Assembly: GCA_963850905.1 (NCBI GenBank)
Contig: CAWKMU010000003.1
Location: 2,656,001-2,720,000, forward strand
From: an uncultured Gemmatimonadales bacterium
GTDB taxonomy: Bacteria; Gemmatimonadota; Gemmatimonadetes; Gemmatimonadales; Gemmatimonadaceae
Direction: 5' to 3'
DNA length: 64,000 nucleotides
Shown in pieces: positions 31,559-48,918 of the stretch. Within the stretch, counting starts at the first letter, position 1; the number at the start of each line of letters is the position of its first letter. Under the pieces are notes generated by a model. That model was given only the letters and a program-made list of their open reading frames with translations. It made no database searches and was not told the origin of the DNA. The translations under genes were made by a program, and so were the position numbers.

Positions 31559-32062
31559 GGCAGCGAGCTCCGGAGCAGGGTCCGCGCACGGGTGAGCTGG
31601 CTCTTCGACGTGCCCTCGACGATGCCCAGCATCTCGGCGATCTCTCGATGGGTGTAGCCATAGACGTCGTGCAGGACCAAGACGTCGCGGGCGCCCTCGG
31701 GCAGCGCGCCGATCGCGCGCTCCAAATCGAGCGCGTCATCGAGGCCATTGGTGGCCGCGGGCGGCTCGAATGTCCGGTGCATCGACCGTGCGCCAATCGG
31801 CCCGGATGCGCTCCCGTCGGACATTCACCAGGAGCCCACACAACCACGAGCGCAGCGCCGACCGCCCGCGGAACGATGACAACGCGCGCACGGCCCGGAC
31901 CCAGCTCTCCTGCACCAGGTCCTCCGCTTCGCCTTGATCGCCGCCCGTGAGGCGCAAGGCCAGCGCATAGAGCGCCGGTGTGTGCGCCCGATACAGCGCG
32001 CGAAATGCGTCTTCGCCGCGCGCTCGAAGAAACCGCTCAACGAGCGCGTGGTCGTCCGTCAC
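31555..32062 (-). CDS. ECF sigma factor (frameshift near 31770)
   Basis: AEDLVQESWVRA, FRGRSALRSWL, LHDVYGYTHREIAEMLGIVEGTSKSQLTRAR. Confidence 0.88.
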
Positions 32063-32691
32063 GGAGCCTTGGTGGGGTCCACCCAATCGCGCGTGACGAC
32101 GATGAGCGCGGACATCGGCGTCCCTTCCTGGACGACGGCCGGGACGTCCATGCTGTTCGATGTGATGATGCCCATCGAGCTGTTCTTCATGAGCGGATAG
32201 TAGATCATGACGTGTGGCATGAATCGGGAGCGGGCCGTCCCTTTCGCATCGGTGAGCACCTGAGACGATGACTCCATGTACACCAGCGCGGGGCGCTGCG
32301 GCGACCGGAACCGGCCCGAGGCCAACCCGCTATCGACCTCCGCCTTGATTTCGTCGTGGGTCTTGCCGGCGATCCGCTGCTCGACACGGAAGCGATAGAT
32401 GGCCAACACTGTCGCGTCAGCCTCGGCATCCCCGCATTGCGGCTCGAAGGATGTCGGAGAGCTCCGGGCCACGACGCACGCGATACCCGAAGTGCCGGGC
32501 TCCGCAACGACATAGCGGCCGTTCTCGAGCACCCACACCTTGGCATCCTTCGATATCTCCGCTGGTGCAGCGCTTTTCGCGTATCGAATCTCGTCCGCGC
32601 GCGACAGATTCATCGGAGCCGTTGGTGGTGGATCTTGCTGGGCTGCGATGGCGGCGGGGACCAGGAACAACGCAAGAATCCATGCATGCAT
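32059..32691 (-). CDS. Secreted hypothetical protein
   Basis: Signal peptide, AKSAAPAEIS, Cys pair, YMES, PHVMIYYP; GTGA overlap with the ECF gene. Confidence 0.7.
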   Translation of the reverse strand: MHAWILALFLVPAAIAAQQDPPPTAPMNLSRADEIRYAKSAAPAEISKDAKVWVLENGRYVVAEPGTSGIACVVARSSPTSFEPQCGDAEADATVLAIYRFRVEQRIAGKTHDEIKAEVDSGLASGRFRSPQRPALVYMESSSQVLTDAKGTARSRFMPHVMIYYPLMKNSSMGIITSNSMDVPAVVQEGTPMSALIVVTRDWVDPTKAP

Positions 32692-32816
32692 TGAACACCC
32701 TTCACCGTTGAAGTTACCAGTGAGTGACGTTCGACCGCCAAAGGGTTGGAAGGCGATTGTTGTGGCCCGCGAACGGCGCGCGACGGATTGCGAGTTGGCG
32801 TCGCCGAACCGTCATT

Positions 32817-33063
32817 CGGCGGGTAGGGGCGACGCAATGCGTCGCCCTCCATCCCCGCACCGCATGCACCGGCATCGACGTGGGTGCCGTTCTTCTTAAT
32901 GTCGGGCGGCGTAGCCGGCGAACGGCGGGTAGGGGCGACGCAATGCATCGCCCTCCATCCCCGCGCCGCATGCACCAGCATCGACGTGGGTGCCGTTCCT
33001 CCTAATGTTGGGGGGCGTGGCCGGCGAACGGCGGGCGGCGCATTGCGTCGCCCCTACCAGCCG
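32817..33063. repeat. REP cluster: two tandem 106-bp units, each starting with a GTAG REP, closed by an inverted REP
   Basis: REPs at 32823 and 32929 (+) and 33033-33057 (-); the linkers are near-identical. Confidence 0.85.
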
Positions 33064-33113
33064 TATTGCGGTTTCGTGGCTGAGCGCCGGCGTCGCGTTC
33101 TGTGAATCGTCGG

Positions 33114-33596
33114 TCAGCCCAGCTGAAGATCGGTATCCGGTGCGGGGTGGCCGAGCAGTCGGCACATTGCGACGACTTGCCCCTTGTGATGAAAGGCGTG
33201 GGTCATCACGTGGTGCAGGATGAACGCCGGGCTGCGGAGTTCCCCAATCCACTGCTGTGGACGTCGCGCCAGGGGAACGTCGAGCGCCGCCTCCGGCAAT
33301 CGATCGAGGTATGCTTCCGTCGCGCGCATCACTCGCTCCTTGGCTGCGCGGAGCGATGCTGCGGTCGGAAAGTCTGCTGCCGACCATGGCCGGATCGGCC
33401 GATCTTCGAGCCGCAGGACCCAGCGCTCTTCAGCTCCCAGGATGTGCATGAGCTGCTCGCGGACACTCGACGCTCCAAACCCGGGAAGTTCCCGAGCGAA
33501 TTCGTCCGCGCTCAGCACTGCGGCATGCTCTACCACGATGTGCAGCCTCGCGTGCGTCCACTGGTGGAGCGCGCGAATCCCGTCCCTGGTGAACAT
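33114..33596 (-). CDS. DinB/YfiT family protein
   Basis: SVREQLMHILGAE.W and LHHVMTHAFHHKGQV His triad. Confidence 0.88.
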   Translation of the reverse strand: MFTRDGIRALHQWTHARLHIVVEHAAVLSADEFARELPGFGASSVREQLMHILGAEERWVLRLEDRPIRPWSAADFPTAASLRAAKERVMRATEAYLDRLPEAALDVPLARRPQQWIGELRSPAFILHHVMTHAFHHKGQVVAMCRLLGHPAPDTDLQLG

Positions 33597-33728
33597 GTTA
33601 CCAAGTTACGCGGGGTCGACGGCGGGGTCAGGGGGCGGGCGCTTGCACACCCGAGAACGCAGAACCACAGAAAATAGAGGAAAGACGTCCGATTGCCGAT
33701 CGAGGGTGTTTGTAGGTACCTCGGCGAG

Positions 33729-33757
33729 TTGAGCGAGACGGTGCGAGCGCCTAAGTT
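33729..33757 (+). promoter_or_regulatory. Putative sigma70 promoter of tRNA-Met
   Basis: TTGAGC-17 bp-TAAGTT. Confidence 0.45.
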
Positions 33758-33773
33758 GTTGTGAATCAACGTC

Positions 33774-33847
33774 GGCAGGGTAGCTCAGCTGGTTAGAGCA
33801 CGGCACTCATAATGCCGGGGTCGCGGGTTCGAGTCCCGCCCCTGCTA
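33774..33847 (+). tRNA. tRNA-Met (CAT), probably elongator
   Basis: GGCAGGG/CCCTGCT acceptor stem, TAGCTCAGCTGGTTAGAGC D-arm, CGGCA-CTCATAA-TGCCG anticodon arm, GTTCGAGTC. Ile2 identity is not excluded. Confidence 0.95.
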
Positions 33848-34043
33848 TTTGGGAAATCGCGGGGCCGCGCCGGCTTGCACGATTTGGCGCCAAGGGCCAG
33901 CCGGCAGTGGCGGCGCTTGGCATGTCTTCGTATCCTCTGGGCGCATGATTGTCCGCCCGGAGCGCAAGCGCGCCGGCACTGTTCACTGCCCCTGACCGGG
34001 TTGATCGTCCCAGGGAGGCACGGTCCACCGTCTGTCACGTAGC

Positions 34044-37000
34044 GTGCGACCTGCGGCACGTCGCCTCGACCGACCGTTTGCCGCGTTCCGTGGGCTAGCG
34101 GGTTATCTTCTCGCTGCCGTTCTGTGCCAGGGGTGTAGTCGGCCATCCGGCGCCCGGAGTGTGGCGCTCGAGGAATGCGATCCGGCGGCATATATCCGTT
34201 GCATTCAGCAAGCCGCCGTCCTTTCAATTCCTGTCTCTGGAACCGGGCTGGCCCTTAGCTATTCGAGCCAGTGGAAGTCCGACGGCGCTGGTCCTGACAA
34301 ATGGGAGTCGCGTCGACTTGGCTTGGGCGGCTGGTCGATCAACGTCCTGGAGAGTTATGACACGGCGGCTCACGTGCTGGCCAGTGGGGATGGAACGTGG
34401 CGCTTGGTGCCGAGCGTCAACCTACCGGCGGGGGAGTATGCGGTGCCGAGCTTTGATGGCTCCACGGCGCACATATTCGATCGCGAGGGCCGCCACGTTC
34501 GCACAGTCGACGGGCGCTTGGGAACCCAGCTCGCAAGCTTCGGCTACGACACGGCCAGCCGCCTTGCCTCGATCAATGGATACGTTGGCGGTCACCCGGT
34601 TCATCTGGTAGTCGAGAGGGGCCCGAACGGGGTTCCGCGTGGTATCTCGGCTCCGGACGGCGGGACGACCACGCTGCAAGTGGATAGCGCGGGCGATCTG
34701 GTGCGAATCACCGACCCGGCTGGCAATGCTATTCGCGTTGGATGGAACGCCCAGGGCCTGGTCGCGTCCGAAACGGATGCCTTGGGGGCGACCCAAAGGT
34801 TCACCTACGATGACGCGGGGCGTCTGGCGACATTTACTGACGCCGACAGTGTCGTGCAGCACCTCGAGCGCAGGGCGGCTCCAAACCGGGTCGAAATCGT
34901 CGCATCGACGTCTCTTGGCAGACGGTGGGTCTACCGTGTGGAGGCCGCTGCCGACGGTAGTCGGCGCACGTTGATCGCACCCAATGGAACTACGAGCCTC
35001 GAGACCCTCGATGCCGAGGGCAGGCGCACGATCACGTACGCCGATGGGACGAAGTGGAGTGTGGGAGCGGCTCCGCACCCGACCTGGGGACGCGCGGCAC
35101 CACTGTTGACTCCAATGGTGCTGACGCGAGCTGATGGAGTTATCTCGAGGCAAGACTTGAAAGCTTCGCTCCATTCGCAGGGTGGTCTTCCCTACGTCCT
35201 CGCGGGCTCGATGACGACTACCGTGAATGGGCGATCATGGGTCGAGGCGATTGATCCCGCTCATTTGACCACGACGTGGACCGATCCAGCTGGCCGGCTC
35301 ATAACGACCACCTTTGACCCCAACGGACACATTCTCGAGCACTCTGCACCGGGCGTAGCACCACTTTCGTACGAGTATGACAAACTTGGCCGGCTCGTCA
35401 CTGTGATGCGTGGGCTCGGCAACCTCGCCGAAACGACGCGCTACGCGTACAACGCACGAAGCGGGCAGATCACCCTAACCCGGCCGGATGGGAGCAGGGA
35501 GCAGACGTTCGTTGACCGAGTTGGCCACATCGTCAGTGTGTCCCCGGGCGACAACGCCGGCGCCACCATCAGCTATGATGCGGTCGGCCGTCTCGCGGCT
35601 GTTCACAGGGCGGTGGGGATGATGTTCACCCTGGGAACCAGTAGCGCGGGGCGCCAGACGGCGTTCGCACCCCCAATGGTGCCAGGTGATTCGTCAGTCG
35701 AAACGCGCTCTTATGACGTCGACGGTCAACTCGTGTCGATCTCTGGGCTAGGTCAGCGGTCAGTCAACGTCACATATAACGAAGCAGGTAAACCTGCTGC
35801 CTGGACCTTCGATCGCGGAAGCGCCGCCGCGTCCTACGACCCCCGCTCCGGACTGACTACTCGCACCGTCGATCCCTCGGGAGTAATCACGACTTACAGT
35901 TACGTCGGAACAATGCCGAGCCTCTTGACATGGTCGGGACCAGTCAGTGGCTCGGTCTCAGAGGTGTTTGAAGCCGGAGAGCGGCCGGCAAGAGAGGTGG
36001 TGAACGGCGTCGACAGCTTGGCATTCGCCTACGATCCGGGCGGAGAACTCATAGGCCTCGGTCCGTTGACTCTGAGGCGAAGCGCCACGACCGGCCTTGT
36101 GGAGCGCGCAACGGTTGGCGTCATCGAGACAAACCAGCAATTCGACGCGAGCGGACGGATGACGCGCTCGGTGACGACCGTGCTCGGCCGGACCGTGCTC
36201 GACGATCTGTACGCGCGTGATGCATTGGGTCGACTTCGAACGGTCAGGGAGTCGACGGCGGACGGCGCACCATCGGAGACACAATATGGCTATGACAATG
36301 CCGGGCGGCTCGCGTCAGTCCGAGTCAATGGCCGCGCGGTCGAAACCGATAGGTATGATCCGGCGGGCAATCGCGTCAGGAGTACGGGGGTGCTCGGAAA
36401 CGTGTCGGCCAGTTACGACGACCGCGATCGATTGCTGACGTGGGGCGAGCGCCGCTACACGTGGAGCGCAGATGGCAAGCTACAACGTCGAGTCGACGCC
36501 GCCGGTGTAACCTCGTTTGCATATGATGACTTCGGAGCGCTTCGCGGGGTGACGCTTCCCGATGGCCGCGTGATCACCTATCTGGTCGATGCCACGCAAA
36601 GGCGCGTCGCTCGACAGGTTGCGGGCACGCTCTCCGCCGAGTACCTGTACCGACCCGATGGCGCGGTGGCGGCGGTAATCGATTCAACGGGGCACGGTGG
36701 TTCGCATCTTGGTTACGATGGGGACGGACACCTGGCTCTCGTTGTGCGATCGGGAGTCGCCTATCGCGTCATCACGGATATTGCCGGAAGTCCCCGCCTG
36801 GTCATCGACTCACAGACGGGGCGCGTGGTCGACGCGATTACTTACGACGCGTGGGGGGGCGTCATCCGAGAGACCGCGCCCGGATTCATCCCGATCGGGT
36901 TTGCCGGCGGACTACGCGACGCCTACACCGGTCTCATACGATTTGGCGCTCGCGACTACGATCCTGGTTCTGGTCGATGGACCGGTGCAGACCCACTTCG

Positions 37001-39290
37001 CTTCGCTGGCGGCGACCTCAACCTATATCGCTATGCGGCTGGCGACCCGGTCAATCGCGTCGACCCGACGGGGCTTCAGTGCGCCGAAACGGGGCGATCC
37101 TCGACCTGCTATCAGCCGAACAATGGTGGCAACTCCAACTTCCTGCCGGCTCCGTCCGGCGGCGGCTGGTGCATCGGCTTGGGGAACTGCTGGAACCAAG
37201 TGCCGCCGAGGAATCTTCCCCCGGAGCAGCCGCCAGCCCCGCCAACACCACCTCCTGGTCCAGGCGGCGGCGGCGGTGGCAAGCCCTGGTCCTGTTCTGG
37301 GTTCGTCTGTACCGGGCCCAATAACGCGACCTGTGTGTTTGGCAGCTGCGGGTACGGCCCCGGGGGATTTCAGTGCTGGGGGTTCGTCTGCAATGGCCCC
37401 GACAACCAAACCTGCGTGTTGTGCTCGATGGGCGACACGCACGTGGTGACAGTCGGCGGGACCCACTTCGACTTCCAAGCGGCAGGGGAATTTCTCGTTG
37501 CCGCCTCCGCTGACGGCTCAACCGTGATTCAGGGCCGCCAGGAGCCCGTGTCGGGCGGGACCAATGTCACCTTCAACACCGCTGTGGCGGCAAGCGTCAA
37601 TGGCGATCTGGTAGGAGTTTACGCGAGAGAGCCGGCATTTCTCGTGGTCAACGGTGCGCCAATGAGTGAGACGAGCACGGATCGGCGTCTGCCCCACGGC
37701 GGGACGGTCGAGCGTCGTGGTGCTCTCGTCGTCCTGAGCTGGCCGAACGGCGATCAGCTCGCCATCACTCGGACGGCAAACACGCTGAATTACAGCTTCG
37801 GCGAGGTTGGCGGAGCCACGCACACGATGACAGGCCTGTTGGCCAGTGCACACGAGGACGAACTCGGCGCCGTCACGGGACGCAATGGAACGACGCTCCA
37901 GCTATCGGATCCGATGTTCCATTCAAAGGTATACCAGCAGTTCGGCAACAGCTGGCGGATCAAGCAATCCGAGTCACTTTTCCACTACTGGCCCGGAGAG
38001 AGCTCGGCCAAGTTCACAGATCTAAAGATTCCGTCGCGTCCAGCAACGGTTTCGTCGTTGACGGCGGCCGTGAGCGGCAAGGCCGCGTCTGTCTGTCGGG
38101 CTCTTGGCGTGCATCGCCAGCCGCTACTCAATGATTGCATCTTGGATGTTGGAAAGACCGGAGCTCCAGACTTCGCAACTGCGGTCGCCACAATCGCCGC
38201 CAACTGGACCCAATGGCGAGGAGAGGCACCACTGCCCGTGTCAGCGCACCCACCGGCGGCCGCGCCTGGCTCAGCGTCTACGACTGTCCCCGAGGCTGTG
38301 GTGCCTGATCGCTACAATATTGCGACGGGAGACAGCGTTGCGCCTGACCGGCCTGTGCGAGGGGCGGGGATCATCACGCATCGCGGACAAACGCAGACGT
38401 ATTCATTCATCGCGAAAGCTGGTGAGATCTGGTATGTCGGGATTGGTCCTTGTAGCGGCGCTCCGATCAGCTTTGATCTCCGCGATCCAAAGGGCAAATC
38501 GATCGCAAGTCGGACCGGCTGCGGTGACAATCTCGGGCCCCTAACGACCGGCGACAGCGGCACCTACAGCATCGTTGCGACCGCCGACAGCGCTGCTCGC
38601 TATGCGTTCAGTTTGCGCGCTACGCGGCTCGACAGCTATAGGATCGCGATCGGCGATAGTGTTGGCTCGAACCGTCCATCTGCAGGAGCAGGGGTCATCG
38701 CCACTCCTGGCGAGCGACAGTGGTTCACTTTTTCTGCGACACGGGGGGCGATTGTCTACGTCAAGGTCGGCCCGTGCGACGGGGCGGCAATGAGTTTCGA
38801 TCTCACGACGGTGAGCGGTGCGTTCGTCGGCGGCAAGAGTGGTTGCAACGACCTTGGCCCGATGACGCTACCAGCCGGCGGCGCGTACCGAATCACGACC
38901 AGTGCTGGTCCGGGGACGGCAAACTACAGGTTTGTGCTGTTGGGGACCACTCTAGACCGGTACACGATCAAGATCGGAGACACCGTGTCCCCGGGTCATC
39001 CCACCGGCGGAGGTGGTATCATCAGTCACCTAGGGGAACGCCAGTGGTATTCATTTTCAGCGCCCGCAGGCGCCACTGTGACCGTCAAGGTCGGACCCTG
39101 TGCCGGGGCGCCAATGACCTTTGACCTCGTGAGTGAAGGCGGTAAATGGCTGGGCGGCAAGGACGCGTGCGGCGACTTTGGTCCGATGAGCCTGCCGTCC
39201 GCTGGAACATATCGCATCGTGACTAGTGCTGACCGTGGCAGCGCTCGCTACACTTTCTCGCTATTGAAGGCGACCGCGGGCCTGCAATGA
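34044..39290 (+). CDS. Teneurin-like YD/RHS repeat protein with C-terminal VWD domain and three Ig/PPC-like repeats; probable lipoprotein
   Basis: LCQG-C lipobox-like signal; YD repeats; RHS core FGARDYDPGSGRWTGADP...PVNRVDPTG; GDTH..GTHFDFQAAGEF (VWD); three ~108-aa repeats. Confidence 0.85.
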   Translation: MRPAARRLDRPFAAFRGLAGYLLAAVLCQGCSRPSGARSVALEECDPAAYIRCIQQAAVLSIPVSGTGLALSYSSQWKSDGAGPDKWESRRLGLGGWSINVLESYDTAAHVLASGDGTWRLVPSVNLPAGEYAVPSFDGSTAHIFDREGRHVRTVDGRLGTQLASFGYDTASRLASINGYVGGHPVHLVVERGPNGVPRGISAPDGGTTTLQVDSAGDLVRITDPAGNAIRVGWNAQGLVASETDALGATQRFTYDDAGRLATFTDADSVVQHLERRAAPNRVEIVASTSLGRRWVYRVEAAADGSRRTLIAPNGTTSLETLDAEGRRTITYADGTKWSVGAAPHPTWGRAAPLLTPMVLTRADGVISRQDLKASLHSQGGLPYVLAGSMTTTVNGRSWVEAIDPAHLTTTWTDPAGRLITTTFDPNGHILEHSAPGVAPLSYEYDKLGRLVTVMRGLGNLAETTRYAYNARSGQITLTRPDGSREQTFVDRVGHIVSVSPGDNAGATISYDAVGRLAAVHRAVGMMFTLGTSSAGRQTAFAPPMVPGDSSVETRSYDVDGQLVSISGLGQRSVNVTYNEAGKPAAWTFDRGSAAASYDPRSGLTTRTVDPSGVITTYSYVGTMPSLLTWSGPVSGSVSEVFEAGERPAREVVNGVDSLAFAYDPGGELIGLGPLTLRRSATTGLVERATVGVIETNQQFDASGRMTRSVTTVLGRTVLDDLYARDALGRLRTVRESTADGAPSETQYGYDNAGRLASVRVNGRAVETDRYDPAGNRVRSTGVLGNVSASYDDRDRLLTWGERRYTWSADGKLQRRVDAAGVTSFAYDDFGALRGVTLPDGRVITYLVDATQRRVARQVAGTLSAEYLYRPDGAVAAVIDSTGHGGSHLGYDGDGHLALVVRSGVAYRVITDIAGSPRLVIDSQTGRVVDAITYDAWGGVIRETAPGFIPIGFAGGLRDAYTGLIRFGARDYDPGSGRWTGADPLRFAGGDLNLYRYAAGDPVNRVDPTGLQCAETGRSSTCYQPNNGGNSNFLPAPSGGGWCIGLGNCWNQVPPRNLPPEQPPAPPTPPPGPGGGGGGKPWSCSGFVCTGPNNATCVFGSCGYGPGGFQCWGFVCNGPDNQTCVLCSMGDTHVVTVGGTHFDFQAAGEFLVAASADGSTVIQGRQEPVSGGTNVTFNTAVAASVNGDLVGVYAREPAFLVVNGAPMSETSTDRRLPHGGTVERRGALVVLSWPNGDQLAITRTANTLNYSFGEVGGATHTMTGLLASAHEDELGAVTGRNGTTLQLSDPMFHSKVYQQFGNSWRIKQSESLFHYWPGESSAKFTDLKIPSRPATVSSLTAAVSGKAASVCRALGVHRQPLLNDCILDVGKTGAPDFATAVATIAANWTQWRGEAPLPVSAHPPAAAPGSASTTVPEAVVPDRYNIATGDSVAPDRPVRGAGIITHRGQTQTYSFIAKAGEIWYVGIGPCSGAPISFDLRDPKGKSIASRTGCGDNLGPLTTGDSGTYSIVATADSAARYAFSLRATRLDSYRIAIGDSVGSNRPSAGAGVIATPGERQWFTFSATRGAIVYVKVGPCDGAAMSFDLTTVSGAFVGGKSGCNDLGPMTLPAGGAYRITTSAGPGTANYRFVLLGTTLDRYTIKIGDTVSPGHPTGGGGIISHLGERQWYSFSAPAGATVTVKVGPCAGAPMTFDLVSEGGKWLGGKDACGDFGPMSLPSAGTYRIVTSADRGSARYTFSLLKATAGLQ

Positions 39291-39395
39291 GGTACCCACA
39301 GAGGTACCCAAACTTGCGCCGTTTCGCACCGCGCCGTGCCGCGTTACGCCTAGTCTTCAGAGGGAAACTCAAGATCTAGTGCGGGCGAGTCTGAT

Positions 39396-39436
39396 CTCAT
39401 AATGCCGGGGTCGCGGGTTCGAGTCCCGCCCCTGCT
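39396..39436 (+). repeat. attR: displaced 3' half of tRNA-Met
   Basis: Identical to 33806-33846, with no D-arm or 5' acceptor strand upstream. Confidence 0.9.
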
Positions 39437-39662
39437 GTTCTGCCAAGGCTTGCGACCAGTGTCAGTTACGGGCCTTTCTGCATCCGTTTCATCGGGTGCG
39501 ACCGATGATATCGGTGATGCTGACGATGTCGCCGCCGAAATCCAACGCGGCATGTTCGTGCCGGCGTGCATAGATGCCACTGTCTTGCTACGAGGTGCCT
39601 CTCCTTTGAGCAGACCTGGCTGGCTTCGGCCCCGATCAGCCCAGCGCCGGCGATGAGTTGAA

Positions 39663-40010
39663 CTAGCGGCCGCTCAGCTTGAACTCCCAGCCCCATTCGT
39701 TGCCGCCATCCTTCATATCAGTGATGAATTGGGTGAGGTAGGACGCCAGTTTATCCGGCGCAATCTCTTCCCCGTCGTCGTTGACGAACGAATTCCCCGT
39801 TCGACGTATGCCATAAGATCCCGCAAGATCCGGCGCCGTCACGGCGCACAGCTTGATGTTCGCCTCGCCCAAGGGCTTGGAGAAGGAAAGACTCTTTCCC
39901 GACGCATCGCAGAAGACGTCAGTCTGGGTTCCCTTCTGAACGGTTACCATGAGACTCACAAGCTTCGGGAGATTCGAGTCTATGATTCTCCATGCCTCGC
40001 GTTCATTCAT
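39663..40010 (-). CDS. Hypothetical protein (115 aa)
   Basis: Protein-like composition with an upstream GGAG; no motif recognised. Confidence 0.6.
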   Translation of the reverse strand: MNEREAWRIIDSNLPKLVSLMVTVQKGTQTDVFCDASGKSLSFSKPLGEANIKLCAVTAPDLAGSYGIRRTGNSFVNDDGEEIAPDKLASYLTQFITDMKDGGNEWGWEFKLSGR

Positions 40011-40539
40011 GTTGCATCACTCCAATTGAGAGTTGCCGTGCCCCTGTGCGGCAACATTGGGCAGGACCTTTTTCGTGTCCGAATTAAAGCCACGGTAGCG
40101 TAGCGTGAAATGAGCCGCCGCCTTGAGCACCTGACCGACGACTTGAAATCGGGCCTGACTGTGGGGCTGACACTGTCGCCACACGTCTGTTCTCGCAGCA
40201 TCTAAACTGCCGCGCCGCCGTCAGGGCAGGAAGGGCGCCGGCCGGTGGCGGTTGCGTGAGCGACTCTAAGGATCGAAAGGGCGCTCGAGTGGCTGGTCTC
40301 AGCCGCTCAGTAGGACAGGCCAGCGGGCAAAGGCCGCTTTGGTGGCGGCGTCTGATGCATTGATCCATCATTATTGCCCTCATGCGTTGTGCGGCACTCC
40401 AGAGATCAGGCCCAATTATGACCGATCAAGGCGCCGGCGACATGGCGAGCGAACTGGCTCGCGCTTCCGAGCGACGCAGCTATGCATCGTACTTCAATTG
40501 GCCCGACGCTGTCGTTGAAGAACGTGGTGTGGCGCGAGG

Positions 40540-42012
40540 ATGAAGCCCGCGAGTGCCGGACCCGCCCTTGCTGCGTCGCCAGCGACTGAGCTCGCCCAAG
40601 CCGAGGCGCGCGTGGAGGCGCAAAGCGCGTCGCTCAAGAAAGAACTCGGCCTCCGCGACCTCGTCCTCACGCAGATCCTCGTCATCGTCGGGCTCTCCTG
40701 GATCGGCGTCGCGGGGAAGTTGGGACCGTCGCACGCCGTCTTCTGGCTGCTCGCCCTTGTGCTCTTCTACGTACCATCGGCGGCCGTGGTCATGTACCTC
40801 AGCCGGCTGATGCCGCTCGAGGGCGGGTTGTATCAGTGGGCGAAGCTCGGCTTCAGCGACACGGTCGGCTTCATGCTCGCGTGGAACCTCTGGCTGTACG
40901 TCATCGTGTTCACGTCGGAGGTCGGCGTGGAGTGCGCGACGTACCTGTCGTACGCGCTGGGGCCGAACGCGGCGTGGATGACGACGAGCACCTGGTTTGT
41001 GGCGTTGTCTAACGCCGCGATTCTCTCGCTGATGGTCGTGATGTCGACAATCGGGTTGTCGATCGGAAAGTGGTTACACAATGCGGGCGGCGTCATGATG
41101 CTCCTGATCTTCGGCGCCTTGCTTGTGCTACCCGCGCTCGGCCTGATTAGCGGACGACTCCACGACTATCATCCACTTCGCGCGAGCATTCCTTCGTTCT
41201 CGCTGTTCAACCTCAACATTCTTGGCAAGCTCGGCTTCGGTGCCCTGGGCGGATTCGAGTACGTCGCCATCCTCGCAGGCGAGACCAGATCACCCGGGCG
41301 ATCGGTCGCGCGATCAGTGCTCATCGCGGCGCCGATCATCGCGTTGATGTTCGTGCTCGGCACGGGCGCCGTCGTTGCGTACGTCCCAACGAACGACATT
41401 GATCTGGTGGGGCCAGTGCCTCAGGTCCTCCGCGTTGGGTTCGGCCCGTTCGGCATCGCCGGACAACTCGTAACCGTCGCGATCCTGATGACGCTTACCA
41501 TGCGCATTGGCCAGGCGAGCGTCAGCTTCACGGCCGTGACGCGCTTGCCGATGGTCGCGGGCTGGGACCGCCTGCTGCCGCTCTGGTTCAGCCGGTTGCA
41601 CGCCACGTATCGGACGCCAGTGAACTCGATCATGGTCGTTGGCGCGTGCTCATTCGGCATCGCGTTGTTGAGCCTCGTGGGGGTCCGGCAGGCGGAGTCG
41701 TTCCAACTGTTGAACAGCGCGAGCGGAATATTCTATGCATTGACGTACGTCGTGATGTTCGCGATCCCCTTGTTCGGCCTTCGGGGCGTGGTGCCGCGGC
41801 CATCGGTATGGCTGCAGGCGGCCGCGATGTCGGGGCTTCTAATGACACTCCTCTACGTCACGCTCTCGGTGTTTCCGATCATCAAAGTGGAGAGCGTGGC
41901 GGGATTCGCGCTCAAGATCTCACTCGTGATCGCGGGGATGAACGTCGTGGGGATCGGCATCCTCGCCTCGGCGCGCCGGCGATCGGCACGGCTTGCGGTG
42001 GTTGGGGCCTGA
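40540..42012 (+). CDS. APC-family amino acid permease
   Basis: LKKELGLRDL, EGGLYQW, GGFEYVAILAGE; about 12 TM segments. Confidence 0.92.
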   Translation: MKPASAGPALAASPATELAQAEARVEAQSASLKKELGLRDLVLTQILVIVGLSWIGVAGKLGPSHAVFWLLALVLFYVPSAAVVMYLSRLMPLEGGLYQWAKLGFSDTVGFMLAWNLWLYVIVFTSEVGVECATYLSYALGPNAAWMTTSTWFVALSNAAILSLMVVMSTIGLSIGKWLHNAGGVMMLLIFGALLVLPALGLISGRLHDYHPLRASIPSFSLFNLNILGKLGFGALGGFEYVAILAGETRSPGRSVARSVLIAAPIIALMFVLGTGAVVAYVPTNDIDLVGPVPQVLRVGFGPFGIAGQLVTVAILMTLTMRIGQASVSFTAVTRLPMVAGWDRLLPLWFSRLHATYRTPVNSIMVVGACSFGIALLSLVGVRQAESFQLLNSASGIFYALTYVVMFAIPLFGLRGVVPRPSVWLQAAAMSGLLMTLLYVTLSVFPIIKVESVAGFALKISLVIAGMNVVGIGILASARRRSARLAVVGA

Positions 42013-42023
42013 GCCGGGCAGCA

Positions 42024-42347
42024 ACTGCGCTGGGTGCACGGTCTCTCCTATGGCGAGATCGCGACGAAACTCCACAACGCTCCTCGGACGGTTGAGCGCC
42101 AGCTCGCCTTGGCGGACAAAGCGCTCCGAACCTATCTACCGATGATCCGACCGCAGCGATAGCTGTCGGTTCAGCCAGCGGGTGGTCGATTGTGGGTTTG
42201 CGGCCCCTCAGTCGTTACTTGAGTGTGGAGACTCAAGACGACAGGCGTCGATGAATCCGCGTGACTCGGTTGGTTGGATCCTGGTCGACCGCTTTCTGGC
42301 CGGAGAATGCTCCCCGGCGGAAGCAGAGAGCGTTCGAGAACGAGCAC
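42024..42347 (+). pseudogene. Duplicated fragment: ECF 3' end, intergenic region and fecR 5' end (copy of 44221-44544)
   Basis: 324-bp ungapped direct repeat with about 11 substitutions by manual comparison. Confidence 0.9.
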
Positions 42348-42453
42348 CGATCTGCACACGACCATCGGGCCGATCGCAGAAGCTGTGTCGAGCACGTGTT
42401 CGAATACACAAGCTGAGCAAAGGATTCGAATCACCCACATGGGAGGGGCAGTG

Positions 42454-43605
42454 ATGAAAGCGAGCCTGCTTCACGGTGGCCTCCGGGTCACGCCAATGCC
42501 AATCCGTGCTGCGGCAATGGTGGCAGCGTTGTCTGCCGCGGTCATGGTTCCCTCGGCCCTCGCACAACAGGCGCAGACCTCGTCCTTTACCGTTGGCACC
42601 GCGACCGCACAACCTGGCGCACTCGCGACTGGTGTGGTTGTTGTGCCGCCAGGTTCAGATTCGGGGCTTTCCATCCCCGTTGCGGTGATTCGCGGCGCCC
42701 ATGTCGGCCCCGTCATCACCTTCATGGCCGGAACTCACGGGACTGAATACGCCTCGGAGGTTGCGCTCCAGCAACTGATCACCCGCGTCGACGCCAAACA
42801 GCTCGCAGGCACGGTGATCGTCGTTCCGATCGTCAATATCCCGTCGTTCGAGACGATGACGCCGCATTTGAATCCGGTCGATCGCAAGAGCATGGCAGGA
42901 GGGGTGGGCGATCCATTGGGGACACAAAGCCCGCGCACGTTGGCGATCATGTTGCAACAAATTATTGTCCCCGCTGACGTCGTGGTCGATCTCCATGGTG
43001 GAGACCTCGACGAGAACCTGCGCGCCTACAGTTACTGGAATCGCACCGGGCATGCGAGCCAGGACTCGGCATCCCTGCGGCTAGTGCGGGCCTTCGGGAT
43101 GAGCACTGTTCTCGTCACCAACGCGAACATTGATGGGCCAAATTCGGGTCACCCCTATGGAGGCTACGCGCTCAAGAACGGCAAAACGCTGCTCGTTGCA
43201 GAAGCGGGACGTACCGGCACCGTGGCGCCCGCGGATGTGGCGGCGCTCGTGAACGGATCGCTCAATGTCTTGGACGCGCTTCACATGATCAAGCACCCCT
43301 CAACGCCAGTAACCCAGATCAGATGGCTCGAGGGCCCTGGCAAGACCATCACCGCAGATAGTGCAGGAATGTTCTTCGCGTCGGTTGATCGCGACACCCG
43401 GGTGACCGCGGGCCAGGTCGTCGGGTACACAACAGACTTCCTCGGTCATAAAACAGGTGATGTTCGGGCGCCGATCGATGGCCTCGTAACGTACATCCGA
43501 GGCGTCCCATCAATGTGGCCGAAAGCCGTGCTATTCGGCGTCATCCCAGTCATGCCAGGTGCACCACCGCCATGGCAAGCGCCTGCCCCAGTCGCTGCTC
43601 GCTAG
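42454..43605 (+). CDS. Secreted succinylglutamate desuccinylase/aspartoacylase (M14-like) protein
   Basis: Signal peptide, AGTHGTE, VDLHGG, EAG; GGAGG RBS. Confidence 0.85.
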   Translation: MKASLLHGGLRVTPMPIRAAAMVAALSAAVMVPSALAQQAQTSSFTVGTATAQPGALATGVVVVPPGSDSGLSIPVAVIRGAHVGPVITFMAGTHGTEYASEVALQQLITRVDAKQLAGTVIVVPIVNIPSFETMTPHLNPVDRKSMAGGVGDPLGTQSPRTLAIMLQQIIVPADVVVDLHGGDLDENLRAYSYWNRTGHASQDSASLRLVRAFGMSTVLVTNANIDGPNSGHPYGGYALKNGKTLLVAEAGRTGTVAPADVAALVNGSLNVLDALHMIKHPSTPVTQIRWLEGPGKTITADSAGMFFASVDRDTRVTAGQVVGYTTDFLGHKTGDVRAPIDGLVTYIRGVPSMWPKAVLFGVIPVMPGAPPPWQAPAPVAAR

Positions 43606-43749
43606 CAGAAGGTTGAGAGCTGTGTTGTCAGCGAACTAAAGACGAGGGCTCGTCATCTCTAGTCGGGGCGAGCCCCGGCGTCGCGCCGTGTGAGGCGCCA
43701 AAGTGTGAATGGTCCGTGGCGGCTATTGCGGCCCAGATGCGCCCGTTGC

Positions 43750-44359
43750 ATGATAGCTGCCCCAATGCAGACCGTGTCGGCTCCTGGGACCCGAGGCCTG
43801 GACCACGAGACCGCCCTTGCTGCGCGCATCCGCGCCGGCGATGAGGAGGCATTCGAGACTGTGTTTCGGTCTCACGCCGTGCGGCTGGCTGATTTTGCGT
43901 GCGCATTCCTGGGGTCGAGAGATGATGCGGAAGATGTGGTGCAAGCCATTCTTTACAAGGCTGTGGTTGACGCGCGATCGCTTGGACCCGCGAGCGCCCT
44001 TGGCTGCCCACTTGACGTTGGCGACTCGCAACGAGGTCAGGGATCGGATCAAGCACAATCGCGTCGTCGCTCGCTGGCAAGCCGAAGTCCTCCAGCATGG
44101 GTCGCACTTCGGTTCGGCTGTCACCCCAGGATGCGACGACGAGTTCGATGCGCGCGACACTGCAGCCGCGATCTGCGCGAGCGTCGCCGCTTTCCCACCG
44201 CAGCGACGTGCCGCCTGCACACTGCGCTGGGTACACGGTCTCTCCTATAGCGAGATCGCGACGAAACTCCACATCGCTCCTCGGACGGTTGAGCGCCACC
44301 TCGCCTTGGCGTACAAAGCGCTCCGAACCTATCTACCGATGATCCGACCGCGGCGATAG
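43750..44359 (+). CDS. FecI-like ECF sigma factor (frameshift near 43950)
   Basis: GDEEAFETVF, AEDVVQ, GLSYSEIATKLHIAPRTVERHL. Confidence 0.85.
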
Positions 44360-44447
44360 CTGTCGGTTCAGCCAGTGGGTGGTCGATTGTGGGTTTGCGA
44401 CCCCTCAGTCGTTACTTGAGTGTGGAGACTCAAGACGACAGGCGTCG

Positions 44448-45500
44448 ATGAATTCGCGTGACTCGGTTGATTGGATCCTGGTCGACCGCTTTCTGGCCGG
44501 AGAATGCTCCCCGGCGGAAGCAGAGAGCGTTCGAGAGCGAGCACGCTCGGACCCGGCATTCGCGGCGCACCTCGACTCGGCACGATTCGTCCGCGACGCG
44601 CAGCGCGCAGCGCATGGCCGTTCCAATGTCGATCGGATGTGGCGGGCCGTACTCGCCGCGACGAGCGCCGCCGGTGACCCCGCAAAGCCGCACAAGCGCG
44701 AGCCGCCGGTGCAAGCTTTCCGAGTCGTCCCGCCGCAACCCGGGGGATGGTGGCGACGGCGCTCCTTTGCAGCAGCAGCTGCGTGCGCGCTTGGCCTCGT
44801 AGGCGTTGCGTCGTTCTTCATCGCCGATCGCCCTGCGACCGAGCAAAGCCTAACGACCACAACCCGTGACTACGCGGCGGGACCGCAAGAGCGAGCAGCC
44901 ATCGAACTGCCCGACGGCACGCACGTCCTTCTTGCACCAGGCAGCCACTTGAAGGTGCCAGCAGACTTCTCGCGCGAACGCCAGGTCAATCTGGACGGCG
45001 AGGCCGAATTCAGCGTGGTTCACAATACGCGACGTCCTTTTAGTGTCCGCACGGCACAAACGGTTACGCGCGATGTCGGAACGGCGTTCGATCTACAGGC
45101 GTACGCCGAGAGTGGGACGACTCGAGTGATTGTCACCGAGGGAACGGTGGACGTCGGTGGTCTGTCAGTGAAGGCAGGTCAGGCCGCTGTAGTCACGGCG
45201 CACGCGCCGCCCGCCATCATCCCCCGCGTGCATCCAGACGAGGACTTGGGCTGGACTCGCGGGCAGCTGGTCTTTGACGCCACGCGAGTGTCGGACGCAG
45301 CGACCATTATCAGCCGATGGTATGCCGTTGATGTGCGGGTTCCCGACTCCGCGCTTGGCGCACGTCACGTGACGGCGCGCTTTACAAATCCTTCGGTCGA
45401 CCAGGTACTTGCCAGTCTGGCGTCGACGCTCAATGTGCGCGTCGATCGGACTGATCTGACAATAACGCTGTTACCGCAGGAGTCGAGGTCAACTAAATAG
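44448..45500 (+). CDS. FecR-family anti-sigma/signal transducer
   Basis: TM segment, LPDGTHVLL, LDGEAEFSV, VGTAF, VTEGTV, WTRGQLVF. Confidence 0.9.
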   Translation: MNSRDSVDWILVDRFLAGECSPAEAESVRERARSDPAFAAHLDSARFVRDAQRAAHGRSNVDRMWRAVLAATSAAGDPAKPHKREPPVQAFRVVPPQPGGWWRRRSFAAAAACALGLVGVASFFIADRPATEQSLTTTTRDYAAGPQERAAIELPDGTHVLLAPGSHLKVPADFSRERQVNLDGEAEFSVVHNTRRPFSVRTAQTVTRDVGTAFDLQAYAESGTTRVIVTEGTVDVGGLSVKAGQAAVVTAHAPPAIIPRVHPDEDLGWTRGQLVFDATRVSDAATIISRWYAVDVRVPDSALGARHVTARFTNPSVDQVLASLASTLNVRVDRTDLTITLLPQESRSTK

Positions 45501-45518
45501 CGTTTCGCGGGAGGCGGC

Positions 45519-48500
45519 ATGCATCACTGCAGGACTGTGAAGGGCATGTTCGTGGTCGGAGGCGCACTGCTCGCGGCAGCTGCCCCGACACGCGCAAAGG
45601 GCGCCCAGGATACAACGGGCGGTACTCCGGCAACGCAGCTTGCCATACTGACCGCCAGCCCGACGCCATCGTTCTTTGAAAGGACGGGCAGCCGCCGCAC
45701 CACGGTGAATGGCGCAATAGTGCCGGGTTTCCAACGCCGGGTGTCGCTCTCACTCGTGGATGTACCGGTCGCCGATGCCATCCGACGGATTTCGGAAGAA
45801 GCAGGCCTCGATTTTACCTACAGCCCTGAAATCTTCCCCGAAGGGGCCAGTGTCTCGCTCCGGGCGGAAGACATAACGGTCGTTGCAGCACTAACGGACG
45901 TGCTGCTCAATACTCAGGTAGACGTCGAAGTCACCCGCGACGGGCATGTGAACTTCGTCAAGCGTGCCGCCGCGAAACGCCAGCAGGGCCGCATCACGGG
46001 ACGGGTGATTGACGCAGACACACATCTCGGCATTCCAGCAGCGCCAGTGACCGTCACAGGGACAACGATCGGTGTAACCACGAGCGACAGTGGGACCTTT
46101 GCCCTCCCAATGCCACCGGACGCGAGGACCCTGTCGGTGCGACGCATCGGGTACCTCGCCCAGGTTGTGGCCCTCGAGACCGGAAAATCCTATTACGAGA
46201 TTGCGCTCCAACACGACGTCTTGCGGCTTCAGGCCGAGGTCGTGACCGGCGTCGCGACGACGGTGGCTTCTCAGAACGCGGCCAATGCGGTGGCCGTCGT
46301 CAATTCTCAGGACATCAACGAGGTTCCTGCCCCGACAATGGAGAATTCGATTCAGGGCAAGATACCAGGGGCCGTCGTTACGACGAACAACAGTGGCGCA
46401 CCCGGGGGCGGACTGCAGATCCAGGTGCGTGGAATCACTTCCATCAACGGAAATGCCCTTCCGCTCTACGTCATCGATGGGGTTGTGGCCAACAACGAGA
46501 CGATCAATGCCGGTGACAACGCCATTGACCGCGGCGGCGGCGGGCAGACATCGACCGGGCAATCGGCTGCGACAGCGCCAAGCGGTCAGGATAACAGCCC
46601 CAACCGAATGGCTGACATCAATCCCGACGACATCGAGTCGATCGAGGTCCTGAAAGGAGCGTCGGCATCGGCGATTTATGGCTCCAAGGCATCGGCCGGC
46701 GTGGTCATCATCACGACCAAGCACGGGACAAGCGGCAAGCCGAAGTGGAGCCTCAACAACCAGGTTGGCCACTTCGCCCTATCGAACACGTATCCGGATC
46801 GGAGCTTCCCCACGCTAGCGGGCGCTCAAGCGTGGTACGTGAACGATGTGACTCGCGACAAAACTGCGGGTGCCATCGCTGCCGACAACTCGTTCATCAG
46901 CAGCTTGTACGCCGGACCGCAGGATTATCAGACACAACTCTTCGCCAACCCCCAAGCCGCCTACCAGACGAACCTGAGCGTGAGTGGTAGCGTGGGCAAG
47001 GCACAGTACTACTTGTCGGGGCTTTCGAAGTACGACAACGGCACGATGTACAACACGGGCTACAACAAGCAGTCCGTGCGGGCCAACATCACGCAGGAGG
47101 CCGCGTCGGGTCTGACGGTGGCCGCCAATTTAAACTACATCCACGACGTCACACGCCGCGGCATCACGGGTAACGACAACATTGGCATCAGCCCCTACGA
47201 CGTCTTCTCCTACACACCGGGGTTCTTGGCGCTCGATAAGGTGAACGCGGACGGCTCGTGGCCTCATAACTACTTTGGTCCCGCCAACCCGTTCGCCGAT
47301 GCCTATGAGATCCAAACGCCGCAGCAAGTGAGCCGATTCATCGGTGGTGGCAGCATCAACTGGACGCCGTGGAAGACTGAGCATCAGAGCGTGCAGGCCA
47401 ACTTCATCGGAGGAGCTGACCTCTCGAGTGTGCAGGACTTGCTGTATGCACCACCCGATCTGCAACAGGAGCAGCAACAACCATCTGGATTGCCTGGCAC
47501 AGCGGTGACTAACGGTGCCCAAATCAACTATTTCAATTACTCGATCAGCATCATTCATCGGTTCACCGGATTCTCGTGGCTCGACGCGACGACGTCGGCG
47601 GGATTCGTCCGCGAACGCCGGAGCACCACCAACCCGGTGTCGGTCGGTGAAAACCTGTTAGCCGGAGTCAATTCACCGACGGTCGGCACGGTGCAGCAGA
47701 ACTTCCTCTACAAGACCGCACAGCTCGACCAGTCGCTGTACGCCCAAGAGCAGATTCTCACCCTCGACTCTCGGCTGGCGGTCACCGCCGGCATCACCGC
47801 CGAGCGGTCGACCAACGATGGCGACATCACCAAGTTTTACTACTATCCGCGCTACTCGGCGTCCTACCGGCTGCCGCAGTTCGCCAGCGCGCTGGACGAG
47901 TTGAAGGTGCGCGTGGCGTATGGACAGTCTGGCAACCTGGCGCCCTACGGCGCCCGATATTCGACCCTCAGCCAGACACTCGACGGGGGTGCGAACGGTA
48001 TCGGCGGCAATCTGGAACTCGGCGATTCCCACATCAAGCCGGAATCGGAACAAGAAATCGAGACCGGATTCGACGCTACGTTCTTCCACTCGCGGGCTCA
48101 GCTCTCGGCCACGATCTACCAGAAGCGCCTGACCAGCCTGTTGCTGCAGGCGGGTGTGGCTCCTTCCTATGGGTACACAACGGAGTTTATCAATGGCGGC
48201 GAGTTCACGAACCAGGGGCTCGAGCTCTCGCTGCAGTCCACTCCGATCACGTTGCGGAACGGTTTCACGTGGGTGAACACGCTCACGTTCTTCCGCAACT
48301 ACAGCGTCGTCAACGCCCTGCCGGTGCCGCCGTTTACCGTGGAAAACGAATCCGGATTCGGCAACGGATTTCTCGCTCCGGGGAGGTCGGTATCGGAGAT
48401 TGTGAACCCCAACATCACCGGGGCCGGCGGCCTCCCTCTGTGGGTGGGTGATGTGTCACCCGGAATGCTGGTGAGCTTGGGCAACGAATTCACTTGGAAG

Positions 48501-48918
48501 GCGTTCCGTGTCTACGGGTTCCTCGACTGGAGCCGGGGCGGCAACCAGATCAACGTGACGGACTTTTACTACGATTTCGGCCCAGAGTTGTCCGCCGACT
48601 CGGCGTATGACGCCAGGCAGGTCGCAGCTCTAAACGCCGGCGAAGAGCCCTACACTGAGGGAGCTTCGTTCCTGAAGGTGCGTCAGGTGACGGCCAGCTA
48701 CACTCTGCCCCAGCGCGCGGTCAACCGGATCGGATTCGGCCGGATAAGCAGCGCGCGACTCTCGTTCGGTGGATACAACTTGTGGGGCATCTGACAAGTA
48801 TCACGGCCTCGATCCGGAGGTGAGTTTCGCCGGCGACCAGACGATTCGCGCCGCTGGAGACATCACACCGTACCCGCCAGCACGCAGCTATTTCTTCGGC
48901 CTCGACCTGGGATTCTGA
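45519..48918 (+). CDS. SusC/RagA TonB-dependent transporter with N-terminal STN extension (frameshift near 48790)
   Basis: PLYVIDG, DINPDDIESIEVLKGASASAIYGS, IKPE; the true C-terminus YPPARSYFFGLDLGF is in another frame. Confidence 0.93.

Follow-up and report, generated by a model that had tools for sequence, protein, structure and literature searches.

A plug-only teneurin-like RHS shell with a variable slot and a VWD-C8-PPC module behind it, encoded alone in a tRNA islet of a Gemmatimonadales bacterium

The window analyzed here, a stretch of 64,000 nucleotides from contig CAWKMU010000003.1 of an uncultured Gemmatimonadales bacterium, carries on its + strand (34044..39290, with a GTG start) the gene of a 1748-aa plug-only teneurin-like RHS/YD protein that ends in a VWD-C8-PPCx3 C-terminus. 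Judged by sequence, this protein retains the plug seen in teneurin-like proteins from bacteria (TLPs), both the FN3 sandwich and the NHL propeller having been lost, and it belongs to a soil-bacterial family with 43 or more similar members, in which the Arg and the two Asp residues of the RHS aspartyl autoprotease are intact, with activity predicted, and in which the slots behind the core are exchanged between near-identical shells. Our preferred reading, to which we give a probability of roughly 0.47, is that of an anchored, self-cleaving holster, in which the slot would be caged, the chain would pass through the wall of the shell, the cut would fall after L1011, and the module would stay tethered until it is released.

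The gene is present as one copy in the genome, and an origin as an assembly artefact was rejected, given that the contigs of soil runs cover the region and that homologues exist. All 30 of the 30 bins of positions 32000-42000 are spanned by contigs of the public soil runs X1 and X2 with no indels listed, and the substitutions of these runs (40 listed and 13 further) spare the catalytic residues and the GDTH motif wherever they were mapped. Approximately 12 A>G differences at 34575-38870, common to 2-4 short-read runs and in many cases affecting the first base of Asn codons, are possibly systematic assembly errors or strain differences. A promoter scan for the gene returned 0 sites, and the search for its expression listed no RNA dataset with the sequence. 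At the protein level, Pfam matches above the cut-off are those to the RHS repeats and to the model of the teneurin YD shell, and NCBIfam places the RHS-associated core at aa 934-1011, with an RHS_core score of 85 bits versus a cut-off of 2000.

The closest solved relative of the protein is the Bacillus BiTLP (phmmer E 5.5e-96), followed by the teneurins (1e-38) and then by T6SS Rhs. The shell was modeled with AlphaFold2 (aa 40-1135, 62-row alignment, pTM 0.84), and this model, which is not fully independent of the TLPs because its alignment contained canonical ones, has 9ifo (BiTLP) as its top Foldseek match and superposes on the 9IFO chain 710-2144 with Z 44.5 and an rmsd of 2.0 Å over 943 residues. 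The T6SS Rhs chains fit it with an rmsd of 3.9-10, and several of them tie with or outscore the teneurins in the VIA ranking, but at a higher rmsd. The descent from the teneurin type rather than from T6SS Rhs, which had been proposed in a sequence-only reading of this DNA, is thus borne out. A generic Rhs/WapA origin was rejected, as BiTLP and the teneurins surpass T6SS Rhs both in sequence and in Foldseek and the plug motifs can be mapped; the N-terminus has, in addition, a signal-like leader, and not the PAAR/VgrG-binding region devoid of a signal peptide that is a feature of T6SS Rhs effectors.

The N-terminal motifs quoted in that reading are all present, and an N-terminal profile of 13 sequences (two of them from a second group of plug-only proteins, described below) maps onto the plug and shell entry of BiTLP as three co-linear pieces, 716-759, 885-926, and 1260-1308. 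Within the complete FN-plug of BiTLP (673-928), only the first two pieces are matched, and these are adjacent in the 1748-aa protein, where plug piece 1 (aa 42-84; 34167..34295, +) equals BiTLP 716-759 and plug piece 2 (aa 87-128; 34302..34427, +) equals BiTLP 885-926, the latter being joined directly to the shell entry with the NHL deleted. Cys45 is the equivalent of BiTLP C719. According to passages of PMC6425310, the FN-plug is an FN3 domain in which a 44-aa insertion and a 38-aa extension build the plug inside the shell, and the pieces kept here have 44 and 42 aa. The FN-plug had been described as shortened, but the FN3 sandwich is absent altogether. The absence of the NHL propeller, which spans 929-1255 in BiTLP (PMC13018210), was recognized correctly, given that only 20-24 aa separate GDG from PS[YF] in 43 of the 43 aligned family members, versus approximately 350-410 aa for the corresponding span from the GGW motif in the NHL-bearing TLPs in which the pattern matched; PF25021, employed as the NHL test, was not found in the genome.

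The YD shell and RHS core (aa 129-1011; 34428..37076, +) include R970, D983, and D1007, which are invariant, together with G1010, in all 43 family members, and the DPTG motif expected near aa 1007 is located at 1007-1010. In BiTLP, the residues R2103, D2116, and D2140 cut after L2144 (PMC13018210), and the correspondence of R970, D983, and D1007 to these residues predicts self-cleavage after L1011. A second cleavage site of BiTLP lies at the N-terminal G723|S724 (PMC13018210), and a Ser equivalent to S724 is found in none of the 41 scorable family members, being absent from plug piece 1 of the 1748-aa protein as well. The cleavage Ser is present by pattern in 13 of the 19 proteins of the second plug-only group, which have short C-domains and an extra N-terminal domain; in the canonical TLPs the same pattern matched 5/75, a count that was left unused as the pattern is too strict. 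The protein begins with a predicted signal peptide (34044..34136, +) and a predicted lipoprotein Cys31, as suggested by its sequence and by the pattern of the family, in which 30 of the 43 members show a hydrophobic leader that closes with [GAS]C, those missed having, by eye, mostly truncated starts or a hydrophobic anchor. These leaders support the surface anchor claimed previously, with a non-canonical box, LCQGC, in the 1748-aa protein itself. Given the loss of the S724 equivalent and the presence of a leader or anchor, the shell would remain on the producer, and the C-terminal cut would be the sole point of release.

Behind the predicted cut lies the variable cargo-slot segment (aa 1012-1129; 37077..37430, +), which is the least conserved region of the family proteins. 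Measured from the core to the VWD, the slots of the 43 members have 97-258 aa (median 153), and the C-domains of 73 of the 75 other shells have 79-198 aa (median 141); the internal linker of Ten2 has 126 aa, as given in a portion of PMC5851990. The slots are exchanged between close shells: the shells of P0022 and P0029 are 91% identical and the first 70 residues of their slots 24%, and P0038 and P0041 share 74% of the shell, 27% of the slot, and 86% of the VWD. Ten of the 43 slots belong to a single Gly-rich beta-type family, which is carried by the five deepest members of the midpoint-rooted tree, and whose profile finds, in a small local set, the terminal C-domains of the NHL-bearing TLPs P0093 (E 3.6e-7) and P0047 (E 7e-4); the ESM Atlas returned only unnamed clusters for a slot of this type (<=0.84). 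The beta-strand amphipathicity of these ten slots is weak (z -0.1 to 2.6), and a membrane barrel, which this signal supports weakly, was set aside as a candidate. Some slots consist of hydrophobic Gly-rich helices, and most slots, including that of the 1748-aa protein, are of low-complexity Pro/Gly/Cys composition with no family match. In the latter protein, two small Cys pairs are followed by poly-Pro/Gly and then by an 8-Cys beta-hairpin motif (aa 1084-1128); the Pfam scan of aa 1012-1129 gave no match, and AlphaFold leaves the slot unresolved, with a pLDDT below 50. The VWD module is added behind the cargo slot and does not replace the cargo. The earlier formula of an adhesin instead of a toxin is correct in that the VWD module is present, but it is too simple, since the invariant autoprotease and a swapped slot of cargo size persist.

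The region downstream of the core, estimated before at about 740 aa with Pro/Gly/Cys segments, a VWD, and three repeats, does have this composition over its 737 aa (~76 kDa), and is formed by the slot, the VWD with a C8-like helical domain (aa 1130-1390; 37431..38213, +), and three PPC/collagen-binding-domain-like repeats (aa 1422-1528, 1530-1637, and 1638-1745; 38307..39278, +). The model of aa 1084-1748 has a pLDDT of 84.7, and its VWD-C8 part aligns with VWF over 242 residues (Z 22.7, rmsd 3.3) and, more generally, with the D assemblies of VWF, mucin, and FCGBP (Z 18-23), with the family profile reaching E 4.7e-30 against FCGBP; the ESM Atlas gave only VWD leads for aa 1011-1400 (<=0.82). 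In the Pfam scan that had been suggested for the C-terminus, the VWD (PF00094) reaches only 12.1 bits in this protein, passing the cut-off in 7 of the 16 family members scanned, and the PPC reaches 25.7 bits versus a cut-off of 25.9. The three repeats, of 107-108 aa each and with 48-59 identical residues between pairs, had been taken for Ig repeats, an assignment that was not sustained, given that they match the PPC/CBD jelly-rolls of PliG and collagenase (Z ~12).

The motif at the start of the VWD is GDPH in 18 of the 43 members, GEPH in 17, GDTH in seven, and TDPH in one, and GDPH is found in 16 of the 23 more diverse VWD-bearing representatives. FCGBP self-cleaves at GD|PH, as stated in part of PMC8267560; the VWD of the 1748-aa protein begins with GDTH and so has no Asp-Pro self-cleavage site at this point. 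The C-terminal piece has a volume of approximately 92,000 Å3, about twice the ~44,000 Å3 of the cavity of BiTLP (PMC13018210), a figure borrowed from that protein for the present shell, which means that the module cannot sit inside a closed shell, and by analogy the ~76-kDa piece probably exits from it, as in teneurin and the mosquito SGS1. The same module terminates secreted HExxH peptidases in three of the nine genomes of the genus, and is also found in other bacteria. Such secreted metallopeptidase-like proteins ending in VWD-C8-PPC were seen at L002-L006 and L085:4230-7286 in the same genus. For bacterial vWD domains located behind zincin and prok-SAA domains, adhesion to prey has been proposed in a section of PMC12419801.

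The family search produced 286 matches among 7998 scored candidates, with 120 listed, and the best 45 of the 286 have no TTR, FN-plug, or NHL annotations; the alignment of 43 is made up of 42 of these 45, with two partial proteins and a short one left out, and the query. The named genomes that hold a family gene are from Acidobacteriota, Chloroflexota, Dormibacterota, and one Gammaproteobacteria bin, and within the phylum of the present bacterium, the contiguous plug-only N-terminus occurs in its genome alone among the 401 searched. The best 150 representatives of a 50% library include 49 long proteins with a plug-only N-terminus and the core motif, after three motif-less ones were dropped. 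In 29 of these 49 the plug comes immediately after the leader, and 23 of the 29 have a VWD; the other 20 carry extra N-terminal sequence, lack a VWD, and have C-domains that are short (69-166 aa). For 80 of 128 shells, a FastTree tree rooted at the midpoint, without an outgroup, groups the VWD family as a single clade (support 1.0) and places the other plug-only shells among the NHL-bearing TLPs, which indicates that the NHL was probably lost more than once. The loss of the NHL is not unique to the family, and it is the VWD fusion that marks it. The second plug-only, NHL-less group (L020, L040, L041, L042, and L063; P0081, P0226, P0231, P0233, and others) has a signal peptide, an N-terminal domain of ~230 aa, a GSSIGCQ cleavage motif that has been kept, and a short variable C-domain, and several of its genes stand behind a gene for a large secreted protein. 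At L011, L013, and L022, and in P0039, P0184, and P0186, breaks within the G+C-rich slot or close to it, either assembly errors or real splits, leave the shell apart from the VWD module in the family genes.

The 1748-aa gene is horizontally acquired cargo and the sole gene of an integrase-less islet of 5.59 kb, a structure that was absent from the sequence-only reading. The left end of the islet is the tRNA-Met(CAT) that served as the integration site (33774..33847, +, by ARAGORN), and the right end is an attR-like 44-nt copy of the 3' end of this tRNA (39396..39439, +), which is 98% identical and is preceded by the remnant of an integrative-element end with GGTACCC repeats (39287..39395, +), similar to DNA beside the att copy in two related genomes (G002 and G006). 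The islet terminates 105 nt past the stop codon of the gene, whose GC3 is 0.68 versus a genome median of 0.78, a value as low as that of 14 of 338 long frames. The site is empty in G004; G001 and G002 have islands with weak integrase matches at the same tRNA-Met, and G005 and G007 small islets with other cargo. The joint of attL and attR that would represent the excised or empty form was seen in 0/4 runs, on low-depth contigs. The 115-aa ORF at 39663-40010 was rejected as an immunity gene, being on the opposite strand and outside the att copy, in a region with 95.6% identical DNA at the empty site of G004.

The absence of an immunity gene and of T6SS or Tc partners noted previously is supported, as 22 loci of the family (three duplicates having been dropped, with two further pairs near-identical) yielded no convincing immunity-like gene, no T6SS or Tc gene neighbors the 1748-aa gene, and a search of the genome, which is 82% complete, did not find TssC/VipB. 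The next genes at the 22 loci are housekeeping genes, tRNAs, or genes of 490-aa zinc-ribbon proteins, and the two short co-directional frames that passed the immunity filter are one at L008, which overlaps a gene of the opposite strand, and one of 68 aa at L010, whose near twin at L115 fails the filter. Among 25 loci where the gene end is complete and DNA follows downstream, four have an adjacent tRNA and no neighbor recurs in more than five, with zinc-ribbon secreted proteins and LuxR-type regulators recurring in subsets. At L010, L014, L115, L116, and L128, what we take to be a LuxR-type ATPase regulator and a 90-100-aa gene stand directly upstream, and the family members with this pair come from Chloroflexota and Dormibacterota-like contigs.

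Given its features, the protein can be compared to several known systems. With BiTLP (PDB 9IFO/9PT5; PMC13018210), the family shares the shell, the plug pieces, the equivalent of Cys719, the RHS catalytic residues, a Sec/lipoprotein-type leader, and a polymorphic slot of ~15 kDa; unlike BiTLP, it lacks the N-terminal adhesion, TTR, and TIP domains, the FN3 sandwich, the NHL, S724, and an immunity gene, and it has a 620-aa VWD-C8-PPC module after the slot, where BiTLP has a stop codon. The published bacterial TLPs have a short terminal C-domain of ~15 kDa wholly inside the shell (PMC13018210), in contrast to the 737 aa and ~76 kDa found here, and the sections of a review, PMC6425310, that deal with bacterial TLPs report no sign of a linker or C-terminus leaving the shell. 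On the counts of FN3, NHL, S724, C-domain size, and immunity, the protein falls outside the TLPs, although the container is the same. The metazoan teneurins (PDB 6FB3) also have a plug-sealed YD shell (rmsd ~3 Å over ~940 residues) and an internal segment of ~120 aa, after which come domains that have to be outside, but they stay uncut, have retained both FN3 and NHL, span the membrane, and carry ABD and Tox-GHH at their end; the external domains of the two show no sign of kinship. The mosquito SGS1 (PDB 8FJP), as described in parts of PMC9935623, has kept the RHS protease, cages ~230 aa, lets the chain exit through the wall, and may have a second downstream cut, although it is a eukaryotic protein with a larger Tc-type shell with propellers, a helical cargo, and putative furin sites in place of GDPH. 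The bacterial secreted peptidases and effectors with vWD (the relevant part of PMC12419801; P0145, P0156, and L002-L006) have a C-terminal GDPH-type VWD, a C8-like domain, and PPC behind a Pro/Gly linker, with ~30-42% identity to the module of the family, and differ from it in that their N-terminus is a zincin or another enzyme, not a shell. Finally, the D assemblies of mucin, VWF, and FCGBP share the VWD-C8 fold and, with part of the family, the GDPH motif, though the family has no TIL/E domains, few VWD cysteines, and a single copy. The combination of a plug-only shell and VWD-C8-PPC, which was not recognized in the earlier reading either, is not described in the mostly open-access literature searched, nor in 10 of the 11 supplements of PMC13018210. 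The 2026 survey demanded the FN-plug, NHL, and shell together (PMC13018210), so that the family could not be counted there.

In the holster reading, Sec export and lipidation would place the plug-plus-shell cage on the surface of the producer, where the cage would fold around the slot and the chain would leave through the shell wall, as it does in teneurin and SGS1. The RHS core would cut after Leu1011, and the freed 76-kDa piece would be held by its caged segment, with the VWD-C8-PPC module hanging outside, where it may bind a surface polymer or a foreign cell and would stay tethered until pulled or triggered off. The family would, in this way, be a holster for a releasable unit of cargo and binding module, and given that the slot of the 1748-aa protein has decayed to a Pro/Gly/Cys tether, the display and shedding of an adhesin would be the likelier job of this member. 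On the other hand, BiTLP has no opening in its wall (PMC13018210), the slot has a pLDDT below 50 in the model, the lipobox of the 1748-aa protein is non-canonical, and conservation is lacking for the second cut, by which the cargo would be released (GDPH in only 18/43). The invariant catalytic triad might also have been conserved because folding, and not release, requires it. A more general proposal, that bacteria have teneurin-style thread-through shells with a swappable caged cargo, self-cut at one or both ends, and a mucin-like handle outside, is regarded here as doubtful. If true, it would represent a polymorphic delivery system with its variable part in the middle of the protein and with no need for an immunity gene, in which the RHS protease and the GDPH of the VWD provide the cuts and the module serves as a handle for aiming and pulling, and it would offer a bacterial model for the gain of domains outside the shell by the teneurins.

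The same parts may be read as a targeted polymorphic toxin, unlikely in our view, in which the caged slot would be the toxin and VWD-PPC the receptor binder of an A-B unit directed at cells against which the producer needs no immunity, such as soil eukaryotes, and in which the GDPH members would excise the cargo by a second self-cut. The C-domains of the TLPs are toxins (PMC13018210), and the homology of the ten beta-type slots to those of P0093 and P0047, their presence in the five deepest members, the hydrophobic Gly-rich helices of some slots, the frequency of GDPH among the more diverse representatives, and the prey adhesion suggested for vWD are all consistent with this, but no immunity-like gene was found at the 22 loci, most slots are low-complexity sequences without a family match, the amphipathicity of the ten slots is weak, and the 1748-aa protein has GDTH. 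The degenerate slot of most members and the missing immunity gene, together with the lipoprotein-like anchor and the binding folds of VWD and PPC, would also suit a plain stalked adhesin, the interpretation given in the sequence-only reading, whose shell would serve only as a rigid spacer to raise VWD-PPC above the surface, with cleavage absent or irrelevant as in the animal teneurins. This is quite unlikely, as the teneurins lost the catalytic Asp on becoming adhesins (a portion of PMC9935623), the family keeps all of the residues in 43/43, and the slots are swapped yet remain within cargo size. It is very unlikely that the shell is only a carrier, an export or folding chaperone from which the C-terminal piece is cut and secreted freely with no stable caging; the module does occur in free secreted proteins, and some loci are split between the slot and the VWD (L011 and L013), but these splits, which lie within G+C-rich repeats, could come from faulty assembly, the plug sealing the cage has been conserved, and a 900-aa carrier seems unneeded given that Sec-exported VWD-PPC proteins exist without a shell.

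Under the holster reading, the layout with a module outside the shell, which has so far been described for animal and mosquito proteins and not for bacterial ones, would make the family an easily expressed bacterial test of how a chain passes from within a YD shell to the outside, which is what turned a toxin container into an adhesion receptor. The plug and shell represent the minimal container, free of FN3 and NHL, and the external binding handle suggests a route for the release of TLP cargo, a question left open in PMC13018210. The family also adds to the few VWD proteins known from bacteria.

The DNA around the gene presents other features. The tRNA-Met at 33774-33847, together with L085-L093, is an integration hotspot of the genus, occupied in at least five of nine relatives by islands or islets of 2.5-24 kb with differing cargo, such as an S41 peptidase and integrases, and a VWD-C8-PPC metallopeptidase-like gene of G004 lies ~10 kb from the same tRNA-Met. 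A repeated REP/MITE-like intergenic element is found at 32790-33080, between a 210-aa gene and dinB, with pieces that have dozens of matches in G000 (the present genome), G001, G002, and G004. Downstream, the region 42182-48794 contains a cluster of an ECF sigma, a FecR, and a TonB-dependent receptor, in which the start of the FecR gene is duplicated at approximately 42182-42454.
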